A stretch of DNA of 56,093 bases, counting the filler, from Sphacelaria rigidula (taxonomy: Eukaryota): NCBI GenBank assembly GCA_964200075.2. It is 4 parts of 4 records of this genome, joined end to end, with 100 filler letters (N's around TTAATTAATTAA, not from the genome) between each part and the next. Parts side by side here need not be neighbours in the genome. Positions count along the whole stretch, not along the records: positions 1 to 13,951 come from CAXNAA020002560.1; 3 more parts are not named here. One strand, 5' to 3'. Under the pieces are notes generated by a model, which saw nothing but the letters and a program-made list of their open reading frames with translations, ran no database searches and was not told the origin of the DNA. Below, one piece after another: positions 1 to 42,147 of this stretch; the stretch's first letter is position 1; every line of letters starts with the position of its first letter. Both the position numbers and the translations under genes were made by a program.

Positions 1-794
1 TATTGATTGGGAAGAAGGGGGGTGGAGTCTGTGCCGACAATACAGTCGCAGAGATGAATGACACGGACACCCACCCCTAAAAAAAAAAAAAAACGTTTTT
101 TATACCAAAGTCAGGTCAGATTATACCCCAGTTTGGCCATTTTTGGGAATTTTATGACCAAACACTCCGAAAGTTGGGCGAGAACGACTTTAGTGTGGAG
201 CATACCGGGGTGAGGGTATGTTCGAGGGCGGGGACCTTGAAAAGGGTGGTCAAATACGATGCCTATGCCTTTAAAAGGGCTTGGGACTTCCTGGCTGAGG
301 CCAAGGACGGTTGATAAAAACTTCTTTATTTCCAACACTTTTTTGCCCCTGGGAAAGGGGCGAAATACGGCCATTTCTTGGTCGACTAATTTGTTTGCGG
401 CCGTTCGGCCGCATGGATCAACAGCGTGCTGCAAAAAAAATGTTGTTTTACCTCAAAAAACGGCCAAGAAATAAAAAAAACATCGAAAATCAGATCGGAC
501 AACGGTAAGGGCTCGTCTAAACATAACCGACCAGACTTATTGGACAGAGGAAGTTTGTGGGCGCACCAGCCGGGGTCACACAGGAGGAAAGTCAACACAG
601 GAGCTTCTTTCTTCCTTGTTTTTTAGCACCCAATCTTCCTTCTGCAGTTTTTGCCTTTATTTTTAATCGTGAGAGAGGTTTAGCAGTCCCTTCCCCTCGT
701 CGACCGTTAAGTTGAATTTTTTGTACCCACGACAGCAATTTTGTGTACCCACGACATAGTCGCTCTCCACTATCAATCATATATGGCCGCTTCT

Positions 795-3024
795 TACTTA
801 GTCAGAACACGGACTCATCCTTTCACACGTGCCATTTGACCACGGCGAGTTGGGAACCGCGACCCTCCTGTCCAGCTTCAGCGCCATCTTCAGTGCTCTT
901 GCATCACACGGTTCTTGAAATGCGACGCGGTGTCACTAACCCAGACCTCCGGCGGACCCAACGCCTTGCACCACGCCAACAGATGCTGCACCGTCGCTGC
1001 AGCTGTACAAGATTCGGTGGGCTCCAACCATGCGAAATTGCACAGATCATCCATCATTACAAATATGTACTTGTACCCGTCGCCTTCATCCAGGCCGCTC
1101 TCGCCCAGCGGGCCACTTTCGCCAACGTACAGATAACCAAAATGCATCACCTCCCCGGGCCGTGTGCCATGCACTGTCTCTCCTAGTGACCGCGGGACCG
1201 TCCCACCCGCTTTCGAGTCCACACAATGCAAGCATTTCCTTACAAAATCTGTCACATGAGCTTCCATCTGAAAACAACAGTAATACTCTTGCAACCGCTG
1301 TAGTGTCGCCACAACACCCCGATGGCCCGCCTTCTTTATGTGAGCACACACCATCAAGCGTGGTTGTAGCTCTTTTGCTTGCAGCGGGATCAACAACACA
1401 TTCCGCCCTGCTGCGTGCACGCGAAATAAATCCTCACCGTCTTTCGAAACTCGCCCAACAGCTGCTGCAAAAGTGGGGGCTCCAGCAACCATTACTCCGA
1501 ACCCGCTTGAGCCTGCTCTTGGTCCTCACGAATAGCGTTCTTCGACGGCAGCGTTTCATCAGGCTGACCGCTCGAAAACACGACCGCAGCACGCACAGAC
1601 ACCGCCGGAATGTTTACCCACCTTGACACTAAATCTCCCCAGCAGTTGCGCTCACCAGCAGTGTGCCTGATGAAGTAATCGTGCTGCCCGAGCACAGCCT
1701 TTCATTGCTCGAGCCTCTGGGCAGCAGCCTTAGACACGGATGCAACGCAAGTTGAAAATGTATGCTAGGTTACGATGATCGGTGTAGAAGATACTCCAAC
1801 CTACGGAAAGTACTTACGATTTCATAGCCTTCCTTGTCCACCGTAGCCCACCGAACCTGCGCCCCAGGAAACCTTCCGCTGAGAAACCCCATCGGCTCAT
1901 GGCTCATGTCTTCCACTGCCAATGTACAACCCAGCTCATCCTCCGGCACCTGCGTAAGAAAACTTCCCCAGTGTAGATCAGATGCGTCTGGAAACATGAT
2001 CACCTGATACCCCTGCTTGGGAAATGACAAAGAGACAGCATGCACAACCAAATCTTGCGCCTCTTGCCACGCCAGAGCACGCCTGGACGTTCATGCCGAC
2101 TCCTCGATTGTCCGGTGTAACGCCACTCGCTTGGTACGGCGCACGTTTCTCTGCATGTGTTCCTCCAGTAATACCCGCAGCGGCTCCACCACCTTCGCCA
2201 AACGCGGCAGGGACGTTCTCAGCCAATTTACCGCCTGAAGGAACTGAATAAGCTCGCCTGCTGTGCGCGGGCGCCCAAGATTGGCCAGCCCGCTCAGTCT
2301 CTCGCGGTCATGAGCCACTTGACCAACTGAAAAGACCTTTCCGCACCACGTGATCTATGTGTCGTAGAACATGCACTTGTGCGCAGCCGCAAAAAGATCG
2401 ACATCCTCCAAACGGCCCAAAATCTCGTCCAGTGTACGCAACAGATCATCCTCATCTTTACCCCGCCACAAGATATCATCCACCCATACTTTAAACTGAA
2501 GTCCGGTCAATAATCCCGTCATGATGCCTTGAAAATACCCTGTCGCAATCAACACCCCTTGCGACACCCGTGTGTGGGTAAACAGACCTTCAGGAGTCGC
2601 GATCGCGAATACTTCTTGTGTATTGGCCGCCAACGGCATCTGCCAGTAACCCTGCAGCATATCAATCTTGCCAAAACACGCAGCGCCTAGCAGGTCGATC
2701 ATCTCCGCCTCGTGGTTAGGCATAACATTCGGACACTTCTCAATCTGCTTGTTTACCACGCGATAACACTCACCAGTCGCTGACCGCCCTTCTTCGGCGT
2801 TGCCATAGCTGCACTCGCCCACACTGCCTGTAAGCTGCGAAATACGAACCCAAGCGCCACCAGCGTCGCCATGCACCTCGCTAACCACGCGGCCTTTACA
2901 GGGAAATACTCCCTCGGGCTCGCCTTGACTGCTCTAGCCCCAGGTTTGAATTTCACCTTCAATAATCTACACGAACAGGCGGATCACCGCGCAGTGCTCG
3001 CCGAAAAGCGTTAACACGGCGCCT
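795..3024 (-). mobile_element. Degenerate Ty3/Gypsy pol, 3' part (RT - RNase H - integrase), host element G1
   Basis: Minus-strand ORF fragments in Gypsy order: RT (2355..2888, KIDMLQGYWQ, VWVDDIL), RNase H (1770..2051, FPDASDLHWG, DKEGY), integrase (890..1492, H-GH..CLHC zinc motif, VMMDDL, WVSDT). Frameshifts and stops; truncated near 795. Confidence 0.9.
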
Positions 3025-3036
3025 TGTAGACTGCGG

Positions 3037-3296
3037 TGTAGACTTTAGTCACCATTTTTACCTTAGGTTGGGGACATTGTAGACGTCGAGTTGCGGGTCT
3101 GATTGCCGGACTCTGTGATGGTGACCTCCAGGGCGAGAGAGCCCGGTTTTGCGACTCTGGTGGAGAGAAGCTATGGTCCTGTTTTTCTGTACTTTGCTGA
3201 GGGTTATTATGTGATTAACTAAAGCTGCTGAAGTCCATGTGCCCGTGATGGGAGGAGTCCACATGGCAATCTGATCTTGAGTGACAGAGGTCTATA
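3037..3296 (+). repeat. LTR family A, copy 1
   Basis: Aligns by eye with 5436-5695, 12792-13051 (reverse) and 13750-13951. Confidence 0.9.
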
Positions 3297-5435
3297 ATGA
3301 ACGTTCATTAAGTTCGCTGAAAGGCGGTAGGTCCGCTGAATAAGGAGTTGACACTTCAAGATAGGAAAGTCTGCAGGCCTGATCAGTTTTGCAGCAAACA
3401 AGGTCAGCTCAAGGCGTGTTAACGTCGCGAGGAGTTGGAGAAGTAGAGCCGAGGAGGTTCTGAGGCAGTGCTAGGGCGGGCTGTGGTATCGCTCGTGCGT
3501 GAAGTGCGGGGGGTTCATCGACAGCTTGAGAGCCCAAGTATCTGTGGAGGCAGATGATCTGTCGCATTGGTTTGGTGGTGAGAATATACCTTTTAGAGGC
3601 GTGTTGAGCTACACCATGGGGGTGCCAGGTGTAGCAAGACTGAAGGTGCGAGGAGGGAGTGTCCGAGAGGAAAGGATGCTCCACGCTGTGCACAGGGTTG
3701 TGGTTTTATTGCTGCTGTTTCTCAGGAGCGGGCTGGAGGACTACGAAGAAGGCATTATCTGAGGCGATTGCCGTTGTGGTGAGCTCCGAGTTGAATGCTG
3801 ATGTTGAGGAGCAAGTGCTGAGGTGATTGAGTGCTTGGTGAGAATGAGGAAACACATTATGACTGGTATTCGCGAATCGTTTTGAGAATGATTTCAGCTT
3901 GTTATTGTGTGATTTGTGGTCATGCTTGCGCATGAAACATAATTGTTGAGCGAGTATGATCGTATCGCGTGTGCAGGGTAAAACTCTGGCGTACACGTGG
4001 GTATTTGGGATGTGTGTGTTGCGCTGATCTGGTTGGCACGGACGATGCATGGTATTTGCTGCGAGGAAGGTGGCATGGCATGTGCTGAGTGAAATATTGG
4101 CATGCATGTGCGGATTTTCATATGCTGAGTGGAAATTTGGCAGGCATGTGCGAATTTTTGCTCGAGTGGTACTGATATGAATGGTATTTGGTGACGACCC
4201 AGGGTTGGGCAGTTTTCAATATACTGCTGTATGCTGAATGAAGTGAAGCTCGTATAATCTTGTTCGCGCAGGAACACAGTCTAATTATATTTGTGCGGTT
4301 TGCACGTACTGACTGCAGGATATATGGATTGCTGCTGTTAGCGTGAAAATGAGCAAAAACTACGAAATGCGTAGGCTTGTATCGACTGTAGGAGATGGTG
4401 ACACCTGCTGTTAGCGTGAAAATGAGCTGAAAGGTACGAAATGCGCAGGCTCGTCGTATGTGAGCAGGTATGACGCGAGTGCTTCCGATGGTTGAAGATA
4501 AAGACATTATGCGCGCATGCATCAATGATCTGTGACCGTGTCATGTTTTTGTGTGGATTGTCACGTGTTTGAACAAGCACGTGGTTGGTTTTTCGTTCAT
4601 GTCAGAAGGGCATGTGGATGATGCGTCCATTTGTTCGATGAACTGGTGCAAGTGGACTGCACGAGTGTCGAAAAATTCATTGATTCTACATTTTGGCTGA
4701 TGCACGGATGGGATATGACGGTCCAAGATCCAAACAAGATATAGAAATGTCTGGGATTGCTCCAACACAAGAGTTTGAGAACGAGATCACGAGGGGTGAT
4801 CAACGATGGCGGAGATCGAGGTCCGTTCGCCGTCCTTGGATCAGTATGCATGACTTGAAAAGCGGTTTAAGTCATGGCTTTCTTTTGATTGTTTTGACGA
4901 AATGATGGCAAGTTGAAGCACTGAAGCTTTGACGGCGGGGAGGCATGCGATGCATACGTTTTTTACGGTCTAGCGTGAGGATGGTGTATTATTTGGCTGT
5001 TATACTTCGTTGCGCAGGTGTGGAACGTACAAAGAATGAATTCTGAATGTTGGGAAGTACCTTGTCTCGGATGAGAGGGACAATGAGTCACGAATGCTCT
5101 GGGATTTGATGTTCGCTGATATTTCTGGTTTAGTGCCGATGAAGAATCAAGAGACTTGTTTTGGGCGAAGATTTGAAAAGTTGGCGATAGCAATAGCTTT
5201 GTTACTCGAAGTGGTGCAAGTAGGTTGATTGCATGTTCATGGTGAACGATATTTTCTTGGGATCTCTTGCGAGTTGTTTGGAAGTGGGGCAAGCTTGTAT
5301 GGAGCTGTTGTCAAAAGCAGCGGAAAATATTGCTGATCTTTGCGGGTAACGACGGTACTATCAGGCACCAATGATGTCTGAGTTTGTCAAGCTCTGATGT
5401 AACTCCTTATTGGTAGTAGAGAGCTATGGGGGTGC

Positions 5436-5695
5436 TGTAGACTCTAGTCACCATTGTTACCTAAGGCTGGGGACATAGGTACGTTGAGTTGCGGGTCTGA
5501 TTGCCGGACTGTGTGATGGGTGACCTGCAGGACGAGAGAGCCCGGTTTCGCTACTCTGGTGCAGAGAGGCTATGGTCCTGGTCTCCTGTACAATGCTGAG
5601 GATTAATATATGAATAAGTGAAGCCGCTGAAATCCATGTGCCCGTGATGGGAGGAGTCCACATGTCAATCTGATCTTGAGTGACAGAAGTCTGTA
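5436..5695 (+). repeat. LTR family A, copy 2
   Basis: 260-bp direct repeat of 3037-3296. Confidence 0.9.
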
Positions 5696-6413
5696 GCGGG
5701 CAACATTGTTACCGAGGTTGGGTACATGACTGCAGTGGAAAATATGCATAGCAGGCGTCAATAGTCTAGTTGATGGATAACGGGTCCGAAAGTATCATCA
5801 GTGACCTCCGTGATGTATGCTATTTGCCCACGACGTTCGCCGGTCACTTCCGATAACGAAGACTGTGCGTTTGTGAACAACAACTGTCTTGAAGTCTCCA
5901 AGCCCTAGTGAGGGAGGGAGCCCTTCGAGCAGTCTTGTGACCTTGTTCTGAGTCCAGGAGGGGAGAGGGTGCGTTTTGTAAAGTAGTCCGCCTATAGTAC
6001 ACGTAAAGGTGGATGATGAGCTGCAGGTTGGTGCAGGAGATTTGGATACTAGGTTTACGTTATGATATCAGGTCTGACTATGACCGCTTGACATTATATG
6101 TGTCCACGGAGGTGCAGCAGGTCTGTAGAGTAGTCCACCTCGAGTGCACCTACAGATGCATGAGGAGCTGCAGGTGGATCCATGGAGACGTGGATATGCA
6201 CTTCGCATCATGATATTAGGTCATGAGATATTATCTGGAGTATGACCATGACTGCTTGACAGTATATGTGTTCAAGAAGGTGCAAGGCTACTTCCGATAA
6301 AGAAGATTGCGTGTTTGTGAACAACAACTGTCTTGAAGTATCCAAGCCCTAGTGAGGGGGGAAGCCCTTGAAGCAGTCTTGTTACCTTGTTCTGAGTCCA
6401 GGAGGGGTCCATA
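5696..6413 (+). repeat. Rearranged 5' LTR of element B: LTR body (5696-~5960), two diverged ~150-bp tandem units (~6013-6290), duplicated LTR 3' half (~6290-6413)
   Basis: Both 5696-5960 and 6290-6413 align to 11556-11837. The GAGCTGCAGGT..TGCAGG / GCTTGACA.TATATGTGT unit occurs twice. Confidence 0.75.
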
Positions 6414-6719
6414 GTAAACGTTTATTCAGGGAACCCGCTGAATTCTGGCAAAAAATAAATTTCAGCTGCGGACAGTCTCTACAAAAACATTTTTTTATTG
6501 TACACAGACAGGTGTGCAGTCTGTAACGCGAGGCAGCTCGTTGCAGCTAGTTGACCGAAGGAATGGCTAGGTTTGCTGGAAGCATTGCGTGCAGCTAAGG
6601 AAGAATGGCAGCGCGTAGGAAAAGAGGTGGGAGCGATGCAGGCGATGAGGTGACGTGTCAATTTACTGAGCTTATGGCAGGTGGATCGCTAAAAGCAACG
6701 GAGTATGGACGGCATTTCA

Positions 6720-9255
6720 GCCAAGATGCCTCCAGACGTTTTTTTTAAACATAGGGATTACAAAGAGAGCGTACAACTAAGCAATAAGGGGAGGACAGTA
6801 CAGGCGGACAGTGGAGGCCGTGACAGAACTCGTGCCCAAGCACATTCGCGCGTGTTTATCACGTACAATATTTGACGGATCGGTACTCGATGATGAACAT
6901 CTAAAGAAGGCACTAGAAGACATGCACAATGTTGGAGTGATACAGAGATCGATCCTTCAGATGCTGCAGCAGGTGTGCGGAAGGCGTTGGCCGCTCGACA
7001 ACGAGCCGACTGCCATGGGTAGAATCGAGGGGTAGTAGGGGTGCCCTCGAAGATTTTTTCGCCAACATTGCGAGCATCGAGCGCGTGTTCCGCGAGGACG
7101 AGACTTTCAAAGCAGGACCCGCTCAAATAGTTACGCGGGAATTGCTCGCCGACATGTCCCCCCCTAAATTCAAGACAAAAGTGCTCAATATGCTGCAGAT
7201 GAAGGGGGGTGTGGAAAAAGTACCCTGGGATCGAGTATGATACGACTCGGGAAGCAGCAGAAGCATGGAAGACGGTAGAAGTAGCTGATAAGCAGCGCCA
7301 TCACCAGCCGCAGCTGAAACAGAAATGCGGCAGCGGGACCTCCGGATCTAAGCGCCAACCGAATGGAGAGCAAACGACGACCGCTGGCAGTGAGACTGCT
7401 AGTTCCGGGAAATCTAGGAAACAGGGCCCAAGCTATGCAGATTCTTTCTCATGTGGAGACAAGGGCCACCTCGTGAAGGATTGTAATCAGCAAAGCCAAG
7501 CTGCTGCTCCACAACATACTGCAGATGGGCAGTCGAGGGCCGGCGACACGCAGCAACAACAGCAGCAGCTGTCACAGGGCCCCGGACAGGTGCCTCGAGG
7601 AGGGAGCAAGAGTCCTGTCGCTACAAGGGCTGTATTTTCAACCGATGGAGGGAGTGCTGCCAGCAGTGGAGCGAAGTTGCCACCGGAACCAGTCGTTTCC
7701 ACTGGTGGCGTACAGCAGAACGTATCGGGGGAAACAAGGGAAACAGTCCCGCGCTGGACATCTGAGGCGATGTCGTCGTGGAGATCGCTGAAACCAGGTG
7801 AGGTATCAGGTTTTCAATCTGAGGGCATACGCGTAGAAAAAGAGGAAAGATGGTGTCTCGCCGACTTGTCTGTACCGAGTGCAGGGGCACAGACTGCTCG
7901 TCCGGTCAAGGCCATTTTAGAGTCGGGATCTGGAATCGCGACCATGTCAAAGGGTGTAGCGGCGAAATCACAAGCTATGGTTCCAGATGTTGGAGTGGTC
8001 ACACCGATGGTTGGTAAACAGCTGCTGAAACTGGCTAACGACAATGTTGAGCGAGTTAAGCAGAAAACTTGCCCTGTCCGAACCACTTTACACACCAGCT
8101 CGGGACCGGTTGTGCTGGATCCATGTTCATATGCGGTCATGCCGGGTACAGATGATGTGATAATAATCATGGGGAGCCCTGCGCTGGAGGCGCTGGGCAT
8201 TGACGTGTACAGTAAGTAGCTTAGGTGATTGTGCACGTGCAAGAAACACTTCGGTGCGAGGTGTAAAGGCGCCTGATTTTACGGACTGTCGGCGTGTCAG
8301 TACCGCGGTTGACGCCTTATAGCTACCAGGATGTCCGGCGGAGTCCGTTAATTCCTCAGTCGAGCGTTTGTTGCATGTTCCCGGAACAAGAGCTTGCTAA
8401 GATTGATGTTGCGCTGGACGAGGCAGTACAAGCCGCCGCGTATAACGGCACATCGGCAAGCGACATGAGCCAGATTTGTGAGCCTGTACGGAACAGAGCG
8501 AGCATTTTTGGGCAAGTGCTGCATGGTTATCCGCCTGCTCGCATCGAGCCCTTGAAGGTGAAATTCAAACCTATTGCTGTGGTGGCAAAGGCTCGGTGGA
8601 GAGCGTACTTTCCGGTCAGGATGGCGTGGTTGGCACGCTGCATCGCAACATTGGTGGCGCTCGGGCCTGTGTACTGCAGTTTGCAGATAGTGTGGGCAAG
8701 AGCGGCGATTGTAACGCCCGAGAAGTCCTGTTTTCGCTGGATGAGTGCATACAAGGCGGGGGAGGACGTTCCCCATCCCCACAAGGAGGTGGTGCATGGT
8801 GCTCGCCCAGGGAGGCGTTTCATTTCAATTTTCTCAGTGTAGGCGACAGTGATCCGCTGGGTGATAATGTCTTGGACGAAGGAGATCGGTTAAATAACAT
8901 ATTGGTAAGGGTGGATGACCCGAGCGACTTTGTGCGGTTGGAACCCGCGGAGTCTTTGCACGGCGGCGACGATGGTGGAGTATATGTTGACATGGTGCGA
9001 AGCGCTGGGGCCGCAGGAGGGATGGGTCAGCGATACGGCATCGCAATATTTGAATCGTTCGGTGATAGTACCCGAGAAGGCGCTGATGAATCGCGGACGA
9101 GTGGTGGCCAACTCGCGGTTGTCATATCGTGACCGTGGGCGAATGATGCGTGACATTGTTCGTACCTTGAAGGTAATGATGCAGGAAGGAAGACGCGATA
9201 CTGATGCCTGGGTGGGTTTGGTACCTGCCGTGCAGTGGGCATTGCACACTGTTTT
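6720..9255 (+). pseudogene. Ty3/Gypsy gag - protease - partial RT - partial integrase remnant (internally deleted)
   Basis: ORF 7209..8219 has a degenerate CCHC knuckle (SFSCGDKGHLVKDC) and protease-like AILESGSG. 8294..8760 matches the G1 RT N-terminus. 8790..9255 is integrase core (WVSDTAS..., WVGLVPAVQWALHT). Most of RT and RNase H are missing. Confidence 0.85.
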
Positions 9256-10612
9256 CGGGGCTGCTATGAAAGCTGTTGCTGTATCTATGATGCGAGGAGC
9301 GACGGTTCGAGTGGAAATGCTACTCTGCGGTGTGGACTAGAGATTGTAGCCGGAGAGTTTCTGTTTCTCAGGAGGAGCGCAGAAGAACTACAAGGAAGGT
9401 ATTACCTGAGGTGTTTACTGTTGTGGTGAGCGCCGAGTTGGGTACTGATTTTGAGCAGCAAGTGCTGAGGTGATGATGTGCTCGTTGAGAATGAGGAAAC
9501 ACATCATGACTGGTATTCGCAAATCGTTTTGAGAATGGTTCCAGCTTGTTATTGTGTGATTTGTGGTCATGGTCGCGCATGAAACATGGTTATTGAGCGA
9601 GTATGATCGTATCGCGTGTGCAGGGTGAAATTCTGGCGGACACCTGGATATTTGGGATGTGTGTGTTGTGCTGATCTGGCTGGCACGAACGATGCATGGT
9701 GTTTGCTGCGAGGAAGGTGGCATTGCATGTGCTGGGTTAAATGATGGCATGCATGTATGGAATGTTCGCTACATTATGTTAGAGCGCATGGTATCTGACG
9801 AAGAGTTAGGGTGAGGCAGTTTTCAATATACTACTGTATGCTGGATGAGGTGAACGTCGTATATTCCTGTTCACAGTTCTCTGTGTGCAGTTCGTGGGCA
9901 CTGACTGTAGGAGAGGGTGATTGCTGCTGTTGGGGTTAATGAGCAGTAACTAAGAAATGCGTAGGCCCGTATGTGCGCAAGGAAAACGCTAGTGTTTCTT
10001 GGGGTTGAAAGTAAATGATCTTTAGCTATGGAACGTCTTTTGAGGAAATTTTTTATTCCCGCCTGGAAGGATCATGTGGATGGAGTATCCGTTTGTCGAA
10101 GGGAGCGGTGAGGGTGAGCTGCAAGTCTGTTGGGACATGAACTGCATTTTATATCGCGGTTCATCGATCAATGGAATACGACGATCCTGAATCCAAGTTG
10201 GGATATCATATTTGGGCGCTTTCTTGGGTGTACTCGGTGAATCGAGTTTGAGAACGACATCACTACGGGTGATCAATGATGGCGGAGGTCGAGGTCCTTT
10301 CGCCGTTGTTAGATTGGTATGCATGACCTGAAAAGTGCTTCGAGTCATGGCTCTCTTTTCAGTATGCTTATGAGTTGAGTGGCGCAATGAAGAAGCCTTG
10401 AAGCTCTCACGAAGAAGAGGAGTGCGATGCATACGTTTTCACGGAGTTAAACAAGTAAGAGACCAGCTGCGCTCTAAACGTGTTGGATACTTATTTAATT
10501 CTAGTTTCAGGTATACTGCTTGGCTGTTGCACTCCGTTACGCAGGTATTGAAGGTACGAAAGAGCAATTTGTATGTTTAACGGTATGGTATGCGAGAGAC
10601 GAACTGTCACGA

Positions 10613-10642
10613 TGTTGTTGTTGTTGTTGTTGTCGTTGTTGT
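10613..10642. repeat. (TGT)n microsatellite
   Basis: About 10 TGT/TTG units visible directly. Confidence 0.9.
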
Positions 10643-10841
10643 CTTCACATTAAAAGCCGTTCCGATATCTGCGCGGTACATTGGTACTGGGCATCTTACG
10701 CGGACGCCTTCCGATGGCTTCAGAATTTGAAGTTCGTCGTTGAAGTTCGAGATTTTATGCGGGATTGGAGTCAGGAAACTTGTTTGAAAATTGGGCGCCA
10801 GCTATCGCTCCGTGACTCAAAGCGATGCAAATAGCGTGATT

Positions 10842-11384
10842 TGTGACGGTTTAGGAGACAACCAACTAGACTACTGATTATTCAGCGACTACTGACCAGT
10901 CCTCGCTGGATAATCAGTAGTCTAGTTGGTTGTCTCTTAAACCGTCACGAAAGTTAGTCGTGGGGGCTTGATCCCCGCCCCTTTCACTCCGAAGAGGGCG
11001 ACTCCCCTTGCCAGCGCTCTATCGACTGCCATCAAGAACCTCGAGTGTTGTCTCTTCTCACCGTAACCTTGAGTTACTCGTCTTCCCCACTGATTTCCAG
11101 AGTGTGTGCACTGGGGTCCCTAGCAGTCAACTCCAAACATAGCCACCAGGCTATACCCCACCCTTTTTCTTTGGGTCAATTTTTTTCAGAGCTCTTCTCT
11201 CCTCTTTTTTTCTTCAAAGAAGGTGCGTCCGACGGGAATCAAACCAGCGACTCAGTTTTGTGACGGTTTAAGAGACAACCAACTAGACTACCGACCAGTC
11301 GGTTCAAGAGATAACCAACTAGACTACTGACCAGTCAGCGCTGACTGGTCAGTAGTCTAGTTGGTTATCTCTTAAACCGTCACA
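10842..11384. mobile_element. 543-bp TRIM-like element with palindromic terminal repeats and 4-bp TSD (GATT)
   Basis: Repeats 10842-10949 and 11259-11384, each TGTGACGGTTTA...TAAACCGTCAC(G/A). GATT at 10838-10841 and 11385-11388. Host B sequence is continuous across it. Confidence 0.85.
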
Positions 11385-11555
11385 GATTGCGTGTTCATTG
11401 TGGACGTTTTGGATCCCTTGCGATTTGTTCGGAAATTGGACAAGCTTGTACGGCTGTTATGTGAAAATTGACGTTAGATTTCGATAACAATGGTGCCCGA
11501 GTTGATGAAGCTCTATATTGACTACTTGTTGGTAGGAAGCGAGCTTTGGGGGTGC

Positions 11556-11837
11556 TCTAGACTGCGGGCAACATTGTTACCGTGGTTAGGTACATGACTG
11601 CAGTGAATAAAATGCATAGCAGGCGTTTATAGTCTGGTCGACGGATAACCGGTTCGAGAGTATGATCAGTGGACTCCGTGTTGTATGCTGTTTGCACACG
11701 ACGTCCGCCGGTCACTTCCCATAACAAAGACTGTGTGACTGTGAACAGCAACTGTCTCGAAGTCTCCAAGCCCTAGTGAGGGAGAAAGCCCTTGGAGCAG
11801 TCTTGTGACCTTATTCTGAGTCCAGGAGGGCTCTATA
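11556..11837 (+). repeat. LTR family B, intact 3' copy
   Basis: TCTAGAC...CTCTATA, follows the G-rich PPT and aligns with 3025-3036 plus 5700-5960. Confidence 0.85.
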
Positions 11838-12791
11838 GTCCGACAACCTCCCGAAGCTTATCAACGCCGCTCGTCGACATACTCGCCGACATACCCTTGT
11901 CCGCGGCCGCCTGTAGCGCATGATCCAATGCAACACGGCGCTCTGCCAGCTCCTCCTCTGGAGTCATGTTCATCTCGGGACCTAGCAACATCAATCGCTC
12001 AACGGAGGGATTCACAGGCTCCTCTTGTCCACCTGGATCCTGAAACGCCTCAATCGTAATGCTCACACGCCTAGATTCTCGGAATTCAGGCGTATCCACA
12101 CCTCTCACCAACACGTTACTTGAGTGTGCGTATGCGTCCAGCCCACTATACACGTCAATGCCCATGGCCTCCAGCGTACCGCTGCCGATGATCACCACAT
12201 TATCAGCACCTGGCATGACCGCGTAATGACACGGATTCAACACCACCGGCCCCCAGCTGGTGTGCAGAGCGGTGCGCAATAGGCAAATCTCCGACTGCAT
12301 ACTCCGTGCATTACCATCAGCTAGTTTCAACGAGTGTGCACGAGCCATACTCGTGACAAGTGGCACATCAGGGAACACTGCTTGCAAGTGGGACGCCACT
12401 TTTCCAGACATGATAGTGATGCCAGCCCCGGAATCCAAAGCGGCAGTAACAGGGCAAACGTTCTTGGCTGCGGAACCAGGAACGGACAAGTCTGCCCGGC
12501 AGCATCGCTGCTTGCGGTCAACCACCACACCTTCAGGCTGTTAGTCTGCAACCTCAGCGGTGTGCAGACCCCGCCATACTGGCATTGTCTGAGACGTCCA
12601 CTCCTGAACCGGTCGCGACGGCAGTTGGGGTTGAGCTGCAGGAGCTGGAGCGGGTGGCTGGGGCGGCACCATGCTACTCAGACTACTACTAGCACCCCCT
12701 TGCGTTCCATCCCCAGAGAAAACAGCCCGTGTGGGAGCAGGACCTTTACTACCCCCTCGCTGACCATGGGCCAATTGCTGCTGCTGCTGCT
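11838..12791 (-). mobile_element. Degenerate Ty3/Gypsy gag C-terminus and aspartic protease, 5' part of G1
   Basis: ORF 11833..12528 has AALDSGA (DSG protease motif) and is clearly homologous to 7209..8219. Its end joins the RT N-terminus at 3024. Confidence 0.85.
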
Positions 12792-13749
12792 TTTGGACTT
12801 CTGTCACTCAAGATCAGATTGACATGTGGACTCCTCCCACGACGGCCACATGGACTTCAGCAGCTTCACTTATTCATGAATCAACCCTCAGCACTGTGCA
12901 GGAGAACAGGACCATAGCCTCTCTGCACCAGAGTAGCAAGCCCGGCTCTACTCATCATGGAGGTCACCCATCACACAGTCCGGCAATCAGACCCGCAACT
13001 CAACGTACCTATGTCCCCAGCCTCAGGTAACAATGGTGACTAGAGTCTACAGCACCCCCAAAGCTCTCTACTACCAACAAGTAGTTACATCAGAGCTTGA
13101 CAAACTCAGACATCATTGGTGCCTGATGGTACCGTCGTTTCCCGCAAAGATCATCAATCTTTTCCGCTGCTGTCGACAACAGCTCCATACAAGCTAGCCC
13201 TACTTCCGAACAACTCGCAAGAGATCCCAAGAAAATATCGTCCATCATGAACATGCAATCACCCTACTTGCACCACTTCGAGTAACAAAGCGACAGTCAG
13301 CGCTAACTTCTCAAATCTTCGCCCAAAACAGGTCTCTTGATTCTTCATCGGCACAAAACCGGAAATGTCAGCAAACGTCAAATTCCAGAGCATTCGTGAC
13401 TCATCGTCCCTCTCATCCGAGACAAGGTGCTTCTCAACACACAAAATTCACTCTTTGTACGTTAAACACCTGCGTAACGGAGTGCAACGGCCAAATGATA
13501 GATCATCCTCACGCTAGAAGGAAATGAGCACCCAAAACGTCTAAAACGCACCTGGCCTCTTGCTTCTGCAACACCGTAAAATACGTATGTGCAATCGCAT
13601 GCCTCCCCGCCGTCAGAGCTTCAATGCTTCAACTTGCCATCATTTCGTCAAGACAATCAAAGGAAAGCCATGACTCGAACCGCTATTTAAGTCATGCATA
13701 ATAATCCAACGACGGCGAACAGACCTCGACCTCCGCCATCATTGATCAC
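12792..13749 (-). mobile_element. Second family-A element (3' LTR 12792-13051 plus internal 3' region) inserted in G1 gag
   Basis: Reverse complement of the A LTR, PPT and internal ~4790-5435; inserted in the CAG (poly-Q) tract. Confidence 0.85.
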
Positions 13750-13951
13750 TGTAGACCAAGTCACACGATTGTTACCTAAGAATAGGGGCATTGTAGGTGG
13801 AGTTGCGGGTCTGATTGCCGAACTCTGTGATGGTGACCTCCATGGCGAGTAGAGCCGGGCTTCCTACTCTGGTGGAGAGAGGCTATGGTCTTGTTCTCCT
13901 GTACTATGCTGCGGGTGAATACATAAATAACTAAAGCTGCTGAAGTCCATG
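13750..13951 (+). repeat. LTR family A, copy 4 (truncated by contig end)
   Basis: Starts TGTAGAC and aligns to LTR A; interrupts the preceding A element. Confidence 0.85.
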
Positions 13952-14051
13952 NNNNNNNNNNNNNNNNNNNNNNNNNNNNNNNNNNNNNNNNNNNNTTAAT
14001 TAATTAANNNNNNNNNNNNNNNNNNNNNNNNNNNNNNNNNNNNNNNNNNNN
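13952..14051. other. Artificial contig spacer
   Basis: N44-TTAATTAATTAA-N44, exactly 100 nt, stops in all six frames. Confidence 0.98.
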
Positions 14052-16861
14052 TGTCGAGGTTTGGGCTACGACCTTTGGGGGTGATGCAATGACCCAAGAA
14101 CTCAATCTTCGTGGCGCCAATGCGGGATTTGGAGGGTGCGAGTTTCAAGTTGTGTTGTTCAAACCGATTGAAGAATGATGCCAACTGTTCGACGTGTTCG
14201 ACCGGTGTAGAATCGTGGCACACCGCATCATCAAGGTACATATGGCATTTGGGCAATCCATCAGTTACACGGAACATTACACGTTGAAACGCACCTGGAG
14301 CTCCGGCGGCACCTTGTGGTGTAACCAACCATTCGTACAAACCTGATAGCGTGCAAAACGCCGTCAGTTCAATGGAATTTGGATCCATCACGAGCGGGTG
14401 GTAGCCAGACTGCATGTCAAAGTTCGAAAATACTTTACCCCCGTCAAGAGAGTCAATAACTTCATCAGTCCGTGGAAGTGGCAGCCGGGTGATTGTGGTG
14501 ACAGCGTTCAATCGTTGATATTTTGCCATTCTTCTTACGGACGACTACTAAAGGTGAGGCCCACGGAGACGTCGAGTGCCGAATCAAATCGGCAGATAAG
14601 TAACCATCGAGAATTACCTGGATTTTATCCGCTAAGAGGGGGTTCGTACGGTACGGGCGCATAGCGATAGGAGGAGTGCCATCAGGAATCTTGATCTCAA
14701 ACGGTGTCGTGGTACATCGACCTAAATCCAAGGGTGCAGTAGAAAACCGTTCAGAGTATCTACTCAAGATGGATCTCAATCTATCGATTACAGTGGGTGT
14801 CCAACCATCGCCAGATCTATCAAAAACAATATGCCGTAAGTGAGGGGAAATGTCATCCCACAAGTATTGAAAACTGGCGCGTTGTTTTGGAGAAAATCTA
14901 TCCAGTAATACGGTTAGGGGTTGAGGTTCAGGCGCATCCGGTGGATTTGTCACCACCATGGGTTCAGACATGTGTAGCGGAGGGGGGGCCGTGGATTTCG
15001 GGGGGTCGGTCGGCGAGTTGTTGTTCGCCGGGGGGCACACATCTGACAGGGCGGTTCGTATGGGAGGCGCTCGAGCATAACCCAACAACTGACCGTTGAG
15101 TATATCGAAACATGCAGGGGACGTGAGGTAAATGGCCTGCCTCCCTTCGTGGACAAAGACTTCGGTCTGTTCAAACGGACCAACCTGTGCTTGGTCAGGT
15201 TTGAACAACTCGACCAGATAATATCCTGTGAGGGCGAGCGATCCATTGCGTCTCACGAGGTTCACTTGTATTAGTTGGGGTTCACAAGAAAGCGAGGTTA
15301 CCGGTTCACTAACGTAGTACAGACGGAAAGCATTACCTGTTTTCGTGGGATCATCCTCATAAGCATGAGCTCCCGAATCAGTGTCGAAGTGACCCAGAGA
15401 CAAATTTCCTGCTACTGAACGGTTCGGGACAGGTGTGTCCGTCGTATACGTATGTGTGGAAAAACGAAGCCAACTATCTCGACCCAACAAAACATCAAAA
15501 GGCATGGGACCGTCGGGCACTATTAGTGCCCATACGGACAACCGAGGAGTGGGAGTAGTATCCTGGTAGAATTGTACACTTAGTCTCACCGATTGATTGA
15601 ACGTAAGAGATGTGGAGGAACCAAGCCCACCAAAAACACGAGGGTGCACGGTGGACAGACGGTGCTTGTCCGCCGCGCCCGCGTTGATCATCTGTTGCCA
15701 GCAGCTGGCTGTAGTGAACGTTTGGGGTGAACCAGAGTCTGGTAGTCCAAGAGCTATCAAATGACAGCTTGCACGCGCTCCACTATGTAAACCTATCTTG
15801 GTCGTAAAAGAAGCATTATCCAGAGTTGCAATACCACTGACGAGATAAGGCCCGCATTCGGGGATGACATGTAACCCATCCCGCTTCGCGTTTTGAACAA
15901 AGGTGCTAAAATACATCCGTTGATGATCCTGTGGGACAAGCTTTTGGTCGGAAGGATGGTGCGTGCATGGAGTGTCAGTGGTTGTGCCTGAAAAATTGGC
16001 CTCATCAGTCGAGGGTTGAATCTCATATACTGCAACGGAGGGGCGATGCCGGAGAAGGGCAGTTGTCGTGGTTGGACCCGACAACTGATCTGTGCGTGGT
16101 GTTTCACCCTTATTGGCCAACAGAGGGGGAGAATCGTCAGTGTGAAAAGCGGGATCAATTACATTATCCAGCTTGGTCGGAACAGGGGACGATTCATCGT
16201 GGCGCGGTGTTGAGTTTGATACGCCAATCAACTCAATATTACCATCACTAGATAGGGCCAACATGGGAGGTTTTGGAGACCATTCGTCAGGACGCGGGGT
16301 TGGTAAAGCGGGACTGTTCAACCCGGCGTCTATTAAAGGGGCCAACGTGGGTGAGTTAGGAGACGAGTCGTCTTGCGTAACACTTTGTTTCCCTGGTGAC
16401 GAACACACGATTGAAGTGCCTTCATGACTAGGATGCAAACGTCCATGAGTTGGCGAAGTTTCTGTCCCTACAGACGGCAACGCTTTATCGCAAAGGGGTT
16501 CTAATGTAGTGCACGCGGGGTGGTCAGGGAGCAGTAACGATCTCTTCCAAATCTGGGGAGTACCGGCCTGTTCCACTCTAAGGTTTTCATCTGTCTGAGC
16601 CCACACGCAATCTCCTGCGTGGAGTTCACATGCGCTTGCTACATCAGGATGATCTACATGATCATCTGGAGGAGCTCGCCTCTGGTGACGCGTGTAGCGC
16701 ACGAAAGGGTCGGCGGCTCCAGGAGCTATTGAAATGAGTTCTTGGACAGTCGAACCTAGGTCACGCCCTTGGTGCACCACCTGAGTCGCTGTCACTTGAG
16801 GTTTCATTCCAACCCGCTGAGCGACGGCAAGCATGGGTTCTTTGCGGTTGCGACCTTTCAA
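14052..16861 (-). pseudogene. pol N-terminal part: long linker, aspartic protease, RT (frameshift near 14530)
   Basis: ORF 14465..16861 (LGLPDSGSPQTF, VLLGRD, SPWASPLVVVRKK); ORF 13996..14529 (FDMQSGYH, PQGAAGAPGAFQ, YLDD). Confidence 0.9.
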
Positions 16862-24294: not shown

Positions 24295-26290
24295 TCATGA
24301 GTCATCTGCATCCCAAGCGGTGTCCGTGTTCCGTAGAACGGCTGTTTCGAGTTCGCCTTGGTCGTGTCTTTGGAGGCACCAGGATCCCCTCCGAGCTGGC
24401 GGCTCATCGGTGTAGTACGCATCATCCAAGCGAATCTTAAGGGGTCTTGGGTCATCAAGGAAACGGATAAAGTAGGAGTGGTCAGGTGCAGGATCGACCA
24501 AATGAATTTTTCCCGATCACCACAGTAAACCAAGGTCTTGTACCAAAAATACGCCCCTTTCGGCAATCGTTTTCCGTGAAAATACTGCATGTATTGTGAA
24601 CGCGAAAGAAGGCTATACCCTGTCACAACAAACCGCGCTGAGTGTTCACGTGCCAGTTCTCGAGTGGCAGCTCCCTTGCGCATCGACCGATATCTCTTAT
24701 TCAACGGGCGGTGTTGGACGGTGTCTCTTACCCAGTACAGCAATATTTTCCGACGAAAATGACGCAAATCAACCTCACGCTCCCATGTAACACGCATGAT
24801 ACCCTTCCAATGTGTTCGATACATTACCACTATCTTACCTCCACGACCACGAACCAGTTGATGACCCGAAATCCTATCTACCTCAACGCGTTCCAGGCGT
24901 GCGTCCGCATCCTCGACCGTCATATGATACGGCGGAGTTTTGATTGCATACTTGGTCAACACAACATACTTGCTAAGTCCTACCGGCAGTTGTTTGGGCA
25001 TGTCAGAGGAGTCATGAGCGGGGATACACGGTTTGCATCGTAGCATCGAGACGCGATTTTTCGGTTTCAAACCAGGTTCATCCGTGGGAAAATCTAAATA
25101 CAAAAGTTTCGCTCCCACCGGACTCTTGTCTGGTGCGGTAGCGCTCGGACCAACAGCTAAAATTTCCCAAGGACCAGTCCAATTCAAGGATAGCTCCGCC
25201 TTCAATACTTTATCCAAAGATGATAGTTTCGAGCTAGCCCCTTGATTGATGGTCTTCACATCGTTATACATCCATGCCCATTGGCCTACCTTCCACACCG
25301 GGCGGTTATGCACCACATCATCCAACATCGAGTTGCCCTGGCCACCTTGGCCAAATTGATTTGGTTCTGTTCTCGTACCACTTCATATGCAAGACGAAGG
25401 CGATTGCTAACCGACAAATGATACTCTGCAACATCACGATCCAGACTCTGATGTCCACCTGTACTTTTTGCGTTCGAATACCATTAAAGATAACCGAGTC
25501 ATGCGTCCCATATGAATTTCAATCGGCGACAACCCCGTAGCGGCATTAACTGAATTGTTGTAGTTCATCTGGACAAGGGGGTGCAGGTCCCAGTCCATCT
25601 GTCTCTCATTTGCTACAGCAGCAAGCATCTGCGCCATCGTATGGTTCACTCGTTCCGTTCCACCATTGGTAGAAGGATGACATGAACTAATGAAAATGCG
25701 ATGGGCACCCAAAAGATCACTGACGGCGGCAAAAAGTTTGCCCGAAAAATGCGGGCCGTTGTCAGATAATAAGTATTTGGGCACACCCCATAGTGGGATG
25801 TACATGTAGACAAGAATGTTGGCGGTACCTTCCGCGGTATAACTACTGGGGGGGACGGCGTGCATCACCACATGTCGATTAAATCTATCCGTAAATAACA
25901 AAATATCTTTATTACCACTATCCATCAGGGGCAAAGGACCAAAATCGTCCCACGAAATCACCTCACCAGGCCCGTTTGGGAGTGGCATGGAAACAATCGG
26001 CCAACGAACTGTTTGACGAGAAGTTTTTCGTGCCTTACACGAGAGACAACGCCTCACCCACCAACGGCAACATTGATCCATACAAATCCACCAACAAATA
26101 CGTTCCAACAACTGGAAGGTCCTAATGGCACCTATATGAGTCGATGCCTGTGAAAGGCATTCGTGTGGAACCCATGGGCGCAGTAGCATCGGGACATAGA
26201 TGCGGACGGGTTCATCACCTAGCAAGCGGGAATGTCGACTTGTAGGCTTCCCCCTGGGGAGGGCTGCTGTGGGCCGGCGAACTAACAGAA
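24295..26290 (-). pseudogene. Integrase with C-terminal chromodomain-like and Tudor-like domains (frameshifted)
   Basis: ORF 25434..26225 (THIG..CLSC, WDDFGP, LSDNGP, NGGTERVN); ORF 24159..25328 (WTGPWEI GPY/F motif; EVDRISGHQ..YRTHWKG..TWERE chromo-like). Confidence 0.85.
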
Positions 26291-27999
26291 CTATACCATC
26301 ATCATTCGTAGCATACCTTTCGTTGAAAGTTCAGTAACTTCATCCTGGGTAGGCGCTTTGAGATTCCCGACTTGCAAAAGGAATTCAGTTTCTGAGAATG
26401 GACATGGACAACCTTTCGATAGATAATGGATAGCTGATTTACAAGCAGGTTCTGCCTGTTGTTCCCGGGCCCAATCGGCGTGGGAGAAGAGAGTCAAACG
26501 TACATTGAATATACCATCTGTTGAAGCGTCTACTTCGTGTTGGGTCGGTTCGGGGCGGGGTTGGCACAAAGTGATGATTTCGGAATCAAGGGTGAGCCCA
26601 CCAGTTGGTGTACTCTCAGACGGGACGTTAACTGCTACTCCTGCGTCGAATAGCGTGGAGGGTGTTGTGGTGGTGTTTGCAATATCATCACCACTGGAGG
26701 GGGGCACAGCCGTGGTTTCGGCTATGGTTGGCAGGGGCGGCACGGTCGGGGTCGATTTCCTCGGGGGCTTGCGTCGCGGAGGCTGCGGGGGCGCAAGGAA
26801 ACTATCGTGGACCGGGGTGGGGGCAGGGGGGGGAAGGTCAGGACCGGATACGGCTAATTTGGTGGCCGTTTCGGCGGTCCGCCGTCCACGTGTCCTACTC
26901 GAAATCAAATCTCGACCTTCAGCTGGTAAGACGGAGTCAGCAAAGGACGGTTCTACAACTGCTGCGAAAACCATGCGCTGACCAGTTGCACGAAAATAAT
27001 CATAGCCAACAGTATTCGTAGATAGTCCATTCCATACTGAGTACAACGATTGAGGTTGCAAGCTGCCTAGAACTGATGCGTGGTCTGTGGTCGTCAGCCT
27101 ACCCATGCCTAAAGCCGGCGTTTCTCTCAGTGAAAGTGGTGTGTGGAGACCTGTATGTGCATTCCTGCTGATGAAATATACAACGTCTTCGGTGGGATAG
27201 GTGATACGTCCCATGGCAGATTCATCGATAGGTCGAGCTGGTGTGGGCAAGCGTGACAGGAAGTCGGCGTTTGCATTCTGGGGACCTGTGCGGTACTTCA
27301 GTTGAAAGTTGTAAGACGACAGGATTTCGAACCAGCGTTGGACCCTAGCGTTGTGTTCCGCCATTTTGGCAAGGCTTTTAAAGAGTTGTGATCAGTATGA
27401 ATCAAAAACGGGATGTCATACAAATACCGACGCAGACGTCGCACGCCCCAAACAACTGCGCCGGCCTCTTGTTCCATGACAGACCAATTCTGTTCATTCG
27501 GAAAAGTGGTGCGACTCAGACAAACAATGGGACGAACAGTACCATCGACTCGCTCTTGTTCTAATGTGCAGCCAAACCCAATTTTGGAAAAATCTGTGTA
27601 GAGCCGAAAAGGGCGGGAACCCTGCTCCGCGGCCGACCAGTCGGGGACGACGAGAATCTGCGTGCGCGAAAGGGTGTCCAGGAGGCGGCAGACGGTTTTT
27701 TCCATTTCCAATGTGAACACAAATTTCACCCTGTTTTTGAGGAGGGTGATGAGGGGTTCTAGCTTTTGGGCAAGGTTTGGCAAGTACTGTCTGTAGTAGC
27801 TTAGACCTCCCAACAAGGAACGCAATCGAGAAATGTCCCGTGGCATGGGCATATCGGAGAGTGCGGCGACCTTGTCGAGGTTTGGGCTACGACCTTTGGG
27901 GGTGATGCAATGACCCAAGAACTCAATCTTCGTGGCGCCAATGCGGGATTTGGAGGGTGCGAGTTTCAAGTTGTGTTGTTCAAACCGATTGAAGAATGA
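26291..27999 (-). pseudogene. RT C-terminus, RNase H and long Pro-rich RH-IN linker (frameshifted)
   Basis: ORF 27298..27969 (IEFLGH, LYTDFS, EQEAGAVVW, HTDH); ORF 26291..27364 (RVQRW..NANADFLSR). Confidence 0.9.
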
Positions 28000-28099
28000 N
28001 NNNNNNNNNNNNNNNNNNNNNNNNNNNNNNNNNNNNNNNNNNNTTAATTAATTAANNNNNNNNNNNNNNNNNNNNNNNNNNNNNNNNNNNNNNNNNNNN
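28000..28099. other. Artificial contig spacer
   Basis: N44-TTAATTAATTAA-N44. Confidence 0.98.
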
Positions 28100-42047: not shown

Positions 42048-42147
42048 NNNNNNNNNNNNNNNNNNNNNNNNNNNNNNNNNNNNNNNNNNNNTTAATTAAT
42101 TAANNNNNNNNNNNNNNNNNNNNNNNNNNNNNNNNNNNNNNNNNNNN
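42048..42147. other. Artificial contig spacer
   Basis: N44-TTAATTAATTAA-N44. Confidence 0.98.

Follow-up and report, generated by a model that had tools for sequence, protein, structure and literature searches.

Long terminal inverted repeats (TIRs) with an internally repeated structure are reportedly found in foldback-type elements such as Galileo/P, the Tm1 Mutator/foldback elements and MULEs with multiple long TIRs. These families generate target-site duplications (TSDs) of 7-11 bp and have other termini than the element described here. On the side of the retroelements, Cassandra elements carry 5S-derived promoters. Among DNA transposons with TSDs of 4 bp, Ginger1 and Ginger2 are characterized by TGTNR termini and by TIRs of 40-270 or 50-180 bp (PMC2836005). 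Ginger1 has TSDs of 4 bp and Ginger2 TSDs of 4-5 bp, against 3-6 bp in LTR elements (PMC10045372). A MITE derived from Ginger2, Ginger2_NA of Bombyx mori and Rhodnius prolixus, is described as an element of 531-651 bp with a 4-bp TSD and a 16-nt TIR starting TGTTACGGT (PMC3845634). Sola2 elements have a 4-bp AT-rich TSD (AWWT) and TIRs of 12-21 bp (PMC3627910).

The window, i.e., the whole stretch of 56,093 nt that was analysed, is of eukaryotic origin and contains many transposable elements. TpA is depleted to an ordinary extent (observed/expected ratio of 0.69), and the dinoflagellate spliced-leader motif gave no match. It is composed of four pieces of ~13.95 kb joined by linkers (N44-TTAATTAATTAA-N44 at 13952-14051, 28000-28099 and 42048-42147), so that features located in different pieces are not physically linked. 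The element studied here lies in piece one (1-13951). The sequence that hosts it is itself a repeat, present three times in this piece (3037-6415, 9291-11839 and, in inverted orientation, 13011-13749) with 75-88% identity, the direct copies being spaced by ~5.5-5.9 kb. Within this repeat, positions 10842-11384 correspond to a discrete insertion of 543 bp, in which two palindromic end modules (hairpins A and B) surround 309 non-coding bp. The features of the element, and the corresponding empty sites in two paralogues of the flanking repeat (P1 and P2), are the following:

10838-10841, no strand: left TSD copy, GATT, seen in the sequence, single in the empty paralogues, and with 4 shared letters at a joint in run contigs
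10842-10949, no strand: hairpin A, the left palindromic module, 108 bp, starting with TGTGA; 55-nt arms that are 91% complementary; fold z-score of -16.5
10950-11258, no strand: internal region, 309 bp, recurring in the runs along with the arms; no reading frame of 60 aa or more noted in it
10950-10985, plus strand: left subterminal module, inverted counterpart of 11222-11258, from inverted-repeat and alignment searches
11222-11258, minus strand: right subterminal module, with a T-arm-like and acceptor-like string, from a motif scan and run contigs
11259-11384, no strand: hairpin B, the right palindromic module, 126 bp, with inverted arms; fold z-score of -14.2
11385-11388, no strand: right TSD copy, GATT, from the sequence, the run-contig joint and the empty paralogues
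5227-5230, plus strand: empty site in P1, from alignments, with an exact 15-mer at 5226; 11385-11458 corresponds to 5227-5309 at 77%
13257-13260, minus strand: empty site in P2, the inverted copy, with the 15-mer at 13261; 11385-11458 corresponds to 13260-13178 at 77%

The tetranucleotide GATT flanks the whole 543-bp element on both sides. In the alignments, P1 (~4771-5962, plus strand) and P2 (~13749-13011, minus strand), both older copies of the flanking repeat located in the same window, contain a single GATT and lack the element, and both read ...TGATTGCATGTTCAT... through the insertion point. Moreover, contigs from four public runs join 10837 directly to 11385, skipping 547 positions, 4 letters being assignable to both flanks (2, 2, 1 and 1 contigs in X1, X3, X4 and X6, respectively). 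The empty paralogues and this joint in the four runs indicate that the GATT duplication is not a chance match and that 10842-11384 is a single insertion for which 4 bp of target were duplicated, in the context GTGATTGC at this one site. Both the boundaries and the GATT duplication proposed in the first-pass annotation are therefore borne out, as is its description of a small mobile element, the insertion being discrete and non-coding. Hairpin A is flanked by GATT and AAAG and hairpin B by GTTT and GATT; since no 4-bp duplication surrounds either of them individually, the unit has moved as a whole.

Both end modules are strongly structured. The DNA folds have energies of -50.8 kcal/mol for hairpin A and -48.6 kcal/mol for hairpin B, and in each case none of 200 shuffled sequences folded as well. 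Hairpin A ends on its inner side with ...GTCACG in this copy, position 10949 being an A in most contigs of the family (G>A in 115 contigs of X1). Hairpin B is more complex, with an outer arm (11259-11300), an extra copy of the arm (11300-11339) and a closing arm (11340-11384) that ends with ...GTCACA. It contains a 40-nt palindrome at 98% (11300-11379), and the additional outer arm at 11259-11300 pairs at 95% with 11343-11384. The extra arm is missing in other copies, in which run contigs join 11300 to 11339 via three letters. Near-palindromic terminal repeats of 108 and 126 bp, as first annotated, are thus present, with arms longer than the 35-40 bp then proposed. Aligned with each other, the two modules are 74.8% identical as direct repeats (127 gapped columns) and 72.1% identical as inverted repeats (154 columns), so that the ends are indeed both direct and inverted repeats, as had been claimed. 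The termini of the element read TGTGA...TCACA, with terminal inverted arms of 62 nt at 82%. A search for the 10-nt terminus across the window gave five matches, four corresponding to the element's own arms and one at chance level. Because palindromic end modules are direct and inverted repeats at once, other features must decide whether they are LTRs or TIRs.

Inverted symmetry extends past the hairpins. Positions 10914-10960 and 11248-11294 form inverted arms of 47 nt that are 91% complementary. The first 26-28 nt inside the hairpins reach an inverted local score of 11, which was attained by 9 of 2000 shuffles and by 26 of 1953 random segments of the window, and when positions 10949, 11253 and 11255 are given the letters found in most of the family, the first 11 inner positions become identical on both sides. 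The symmetry, which past the hairpins is seen in the inverted sense only, reaches ~150 nt from the ends; this inner portion is short and only ~70% identical in this copy. Symmetry beyond the hairpins would be expected of TIRs and not of LTRs and, judged from the sequence, fits long terminal inverted repeats. The left subterminal module holds a small T-arm-like hairpin and a B-box-like motif with two mismatches (10965-10975). Further inside, the plus strand is pyrimidine-rich at 11160-11220.

The element belongs to a large family. Contigs with at least 80% likeness to a 951-base stretch number 9007 of 7,725,350 in X1, 7142 of 5,464,531 in X3, 5171 of 4,333,584 in X4 and 167 of 295,880 in X6. 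The copy described here is the one full copy available, blastn having detected no second copy in the 56-kb window, and the structure of the family is reconstructed from short run contigs. Contigs of other copies, 10-18% different from this one, link the inner arm of hairpin A to the internal part (10914-11210 and 10919-11139), and others link the internal part to the margin of hairpin B (11067-11252 and 11089-11261); the internal span 10995-11226 is likewise covered by a contig at 80-90% likeness. In X1, the summed word depth is 1.7e5-1.3e6 over 10896-11375, versus ~60 for an exact-match contig of the flank (11431-11590). This contrast suggests the presence of thousands of copies, word depth being distinct from copy number and unable to rank the parts of the element. 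The element seems to rank with the most abundant repeats of the apparently algal host genome. The labels of runs X3, X11 and X14 point to an alga, the runs that contain the stretch being labelled with a coded organism name or as algae, marine or unspecified metagenome. Run X6, whose identification as RNA is a guess, includes a 79-nt contig with a depth of 445.7 at 11088-11166; neither this contig nor the 167 contigs of X6 demonstrate transcription. Upstream of the element, a (GTT)n microsatellite is located within ~10613-10713, followed by ~70 bases (10640-10713) with a summed depth similar to that of the element (1.4e6 in X1). Other copies of this segment, which is absent from P1 and P2, diverge after 10713 into an A-rich run, and it could represent part of another highly abundant repeat.

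The reading that best fits these data is that of a foldback-like, non-autonomous TIR MITE of the integrase-type (Ginger1/Ginger2) kind, to which we assign a probability of roughly one in two. The main rival is a TRIM, and the inverted symmetry, the missing primer-binding site (PBS) and the missing polypurine tract (PPT; see below) favour the TIR element. The small size, the absence of coding sequence, the TIRs and TSD, the many copies and the sharp boundaries are those generally found in MITEs. The TGTGA termini, a TIR length falling within 40-270 bp and the 4-bp TSD are those listed for Ginger elements (PMC2836005, PMC10045372). Compared without gaps to the published Ginger2_NA TIR, the terminus agrees at eight of the first nine positions and at 11 of 16 overall, a count that is a lead rather than a test. 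The duplicated GATT fits neither the CCGG/CCGT preference of Ginger1 nor the RTATAY/TATA preference of Ginger2, and one site cannot define a preference.

If the element is of this kind, each end would be a TIR of ~120-150 nt, combining a palindromic module, whose outermost ~50 nt recur in inverted form, with a short subterminal module bearing T-arm-like and B-box-like motifs. The element would be moved as DNA by an enzyme acting in trans, the product of an autonomous relative at another genomic location. This enzyme would recognize the TGTGA... termini and join the 3′ ...CA ends with a 4-bp stagger, producing the GATT duplication. Cut-and-paste transposition at the DNA level and the class of the enzyme are both presumed. 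TGTGA...TCACA ends together with a 4-bp duplication are a hallmark of retroviral-integrase-like DDE enzymes. With the long TIRs and the TGTNR form of the termini also considered, the candidate would be such a transposase of Ginger type, Ginger2 being the closest. Against this assignment, TG...CA ends and 4-bp duplications are equally produced by the integrases of LTR retroelements, for instance in the ant PbTRIM family. The element would therefore be comparable to a Ginger-type MITE in the way it works, by an analogy that stops short of an established membership of the family.

The 56-kb window yielded neither an autonomous partner nor a transposase for the element. All the integrase-domain ORFs of the window adjoin RT or RNase H domains and correspond to gypsy-like retroelements, and 28 further ORFs have no Pfam hit. 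The arm motif gave no hit in viral contigs and metagenome contigs. In piece one, a degenerate gypsy-like pol on the minus strand (890-2933) comprises an RVT_1 (RT) domain at 2355-2933 and Integrase_H2C2 and rve domains at 890-1525. Piece two encodes a gypsy-like RNase H ORF (27298-28047) and an integrase ORF (25434-26330), as well as an 893-aa ORF for which the Atlas search returned only weak retroelement-like leads (up to 0.84). The first and last 127 bases of this piece are 100% identical (14052-14178 and 27873-27999), as is typical of repeats that were assembled as circles.

The explanation that survives best besides the preferred one, and which we nevertheless regard as unlikely, is the one implied by the original label, a TRIM-like non-autonomous LTR retroelement in which the palindromic modules would be LTRs and the machinery of resident LTR retrotransposons would carry out reverse transcription and integration. 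The size of 543 bp, the terminal repeats of 108 and 126 bp with TG...CA ends, the short TSD and the lack of coding capacity all agree with it. Moreover, the ant PbTRIM family has 4-bp TSDs (PMC3532108), and gypsy-like elements with an integrase are present in the window. The repeats, of the form TGTGAC...GTCAC(G/A), agree with the terminal direct repeats of TRIMs (about 100-250 bp, TG...CA), yet they are equally inverted repeats, and GATT falls in the range of short TSDs (4-5 bp) found in TRIMs. The sequences next to the repeats, in which both PBS and PPT are missing, speak against the label. Whichever orientation is considered, 12-13 nt separate the repeat from the first TGG, after which no complement of a tRNA 3′ end is seen; an unusual primer is conceivable. 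No PPT adjoins the 3′ repeat, the last 20 nt containing 9 purines on the plus strand and 8 on the minus strand; only in the minus orientation is there a purine-rich stretch, at a distance of ~22 nt. In addition, the inverted symmetry runs past the repeats, and internal ends that are inverted repeats of each other are not predicted by a PBS/PPT pair. No LTR-like sequence with the 10-nt terminus occurs elsewhere in the window. Finally, the two putative LTRs are only 74.8% alike and structurally different although the TSD is intact; this is a weak argument against LTRs, since palindromes rearrange easily. Keyword searches of the open-access literature retrieved no description of TRIMs or MITEs that have hairpin ends and tRNA-like modules, a result that is not proof of absence.

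A combination of both mechanisms seems improbable to us. In such an integrase-mobilized hybrid, the palindromic ends would serve as LTR-like direct repeats and as TIRs, and could be moved either way by enzymes acting on TGTGA...CA ends. The subterminal modules would act as degenerate tRNA-derived Pol III promoters facing inward from the two ends, and convergent transcripts across the 309-bp core could be a source of dsRNA or hairpin small RNAs. The element would then be a tRNA counterpart of the 5S-bearing Cassandra built on a DNA-transposon chassis.

Still less credible is a tRNA-derived Pol III retroposon (SINE-like), or a Cassandra-like element with a tRNA promoter, in which transcription from A- and B-box-like motifs would drive the spread. 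The observation in its favour is a pair of such motifs on the minus strand. The A-box-like motif (11290-11280), located inside the inner arm of hairpin B, has two mismatches with the consensus. The B-box-like motif (11245-11235), 45 nt downstream, i.e., at tRNA spacing, has one mismatch with the box B consensus and becomes a full match with the G found at 11241 in most family contigs (A>G in 103 contigs of X1). An acceptor-like string comes after it, and the left end presents a weaker mirror image of this layout on the plus strand (10918/10965). The tRNA-like strings reported previously are thus present as written, with a likeness at the level of motifs only.

This likeness was not recovered by tRNA models. 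ARAGORN detected no tRNA in the element with default settings; when relaxed to 85-80% it produced only models with 'introns' of 256 and 311 nt, at settings that gave 55 and 103 hits window-wide. The Rfam covariance models detected no tRNA at E<=10 on 801, 95 or 151 bases, the shorter stretches corresponding to a laxer threshold. The RNA folds of the three tRNA-like segments are no better than those of shuffled sequences (z-scores of +0.83, -0.08 and -0.35). A pair of A and B boxes of the same quality is found once elsewhere in the window by chance (8895/8936). In comparisons with known genes, a degenerate T-arm/acceptor motif retrieved 120 loci of bacterial tRNA-Val(GAC) and tRNA-Arg genes, and the minus-strand layout is collinear with bacterial tRNA-Val/Arg, a resemblance that is independent in its 5′ part only, the genes having been picked with the 3′ motif. 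An alignment score of 24 to bacterial tRNAs (the null maximum being 16 among 1954 random segments) was discounted as circular for the 3′ half. The T-arm/acceptor motif itself gave no hit in collections of prokaryote genome contigs and metagenome contigs. Nor are SINEs characterized by precise TIR ends or by a duplication fixed at 4 bp, and an A-rich or simple-repeat tail is absent at both ends.

The proposal of a tRNA-derived analogue of Cassandra is accordingly not sustained, there being no covariance-model similarity to tRNA and no fold better than shuffles. Nor is that of an element encoding its own primer-like RNA, which rested on one stretch read on both strands and hence complementary by construction. 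The T-arm-like part of the first tRNA-like segment (11040-10953, minus strand) is the near-palindromic counterpart of the left-end module of the plus strand, and complementarity to this module explains the string. The subterminal module may have a remote origin in a tRNA. The tRNA likeness is weak and is not needed to explain the structure of the element, and the element adds little to the question of Pol III or tRNA involvement.

The last alternative, two independent ~100-bp palindromic MITEs bracketing an unrelated repeat, would be suggested by each hairpin alone resembling a complete tiny MITE with TGTGAC...GTCAC(A/G) ends and by the arm sequences having the highest summed depths, and it is largely refuted by the single 4-bp duplication around the whole unit and around neither hairpin, by the empty paralogues and run contigs that miss all 543 bp at once, and by the other copies, in which the arm is joined to the same internal sequence rather than to unrelated spacers, as well as by inner junctions that are mutually inverted.

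Several other element classes were set aside. A retrozyme or hammerhead has no support from Rfam, in which no ribozyme matched at E<=10; the Rfam matches of miRNA type (mir-341 with 39.2 bits versus a gathering score of 90, and others) are generic matches to long hairpins. Elements of the Helitron2 type with hairpins at both ends (PMC3627910) are excluded by the TIRs and by the fixed 4-bp duplication. GingerRoot and IS3EU have 6-bp TSDs and TA...TA ends, and IS481EU is found in parabasalids only (PMC10045372).

The correct class of the element matters for annotation, since it is apparently among the most abundant repeats of the host genome: LTR finders would call it a TRIM and MITE finders a MITE, the evidence favouring the latter. 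If the Ginger-type assignment is true, integrase-like DNA transposons and a large burst of MITEs would have occurred in a lineage outside those covered in the Ginger papers compared. Breaks in assemblies, rearrangements and hairpin small RNAs are likely to arise from palindromic ends as stable as these. The value of the observation would lie mainly in genome annotation and in the range of integrase-like DNA transposons.

Compared with known systems, the element resembles TRIMs in overall size, in its terminal repeats of the 100-200 bp TG...CA kind, and in its short TSD, non-coding nature and high copy number; it differs from them by the lack of an adjoining PBS and PPT, by its palindromic repeats and by an inverted symmetry that continues into the internal region. 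In contrast to a Cassandra-type layout, its A-box-like motif lies inside the repeat and its B-box-like motif outside. With Sola2, it has in common a 4-bp duplication and the organization of a TIR DNA transposon, whereas the Sola2 TIRs are short, GATT does not fit AWWT, and TGT...ACA termini are not among the features described in the Sola2 passages compared. The long, internally repeated TIRs that fold back around a short unrelated middle are those of foldback transposons and of MITEs with multiple TIRs, but the 4-bp duplication and the TGT...ACA termini distinguish the element from the Galileo/P, Tm1 and MULE-type families mentioned above. The MITEs derived from Ginger2/TDD are similar in being non-coding and ~0.5 kb long, with TGTNR-type termini and a 4-bp duplication. 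The element departs from Ginger elements by its GATT target and by TIRs that are internally palindromic, so that each end is a hairpin, and its host is apparently an alga, whereas those in the Ginger papers compared are animals, Dictyostelium and a fungus.
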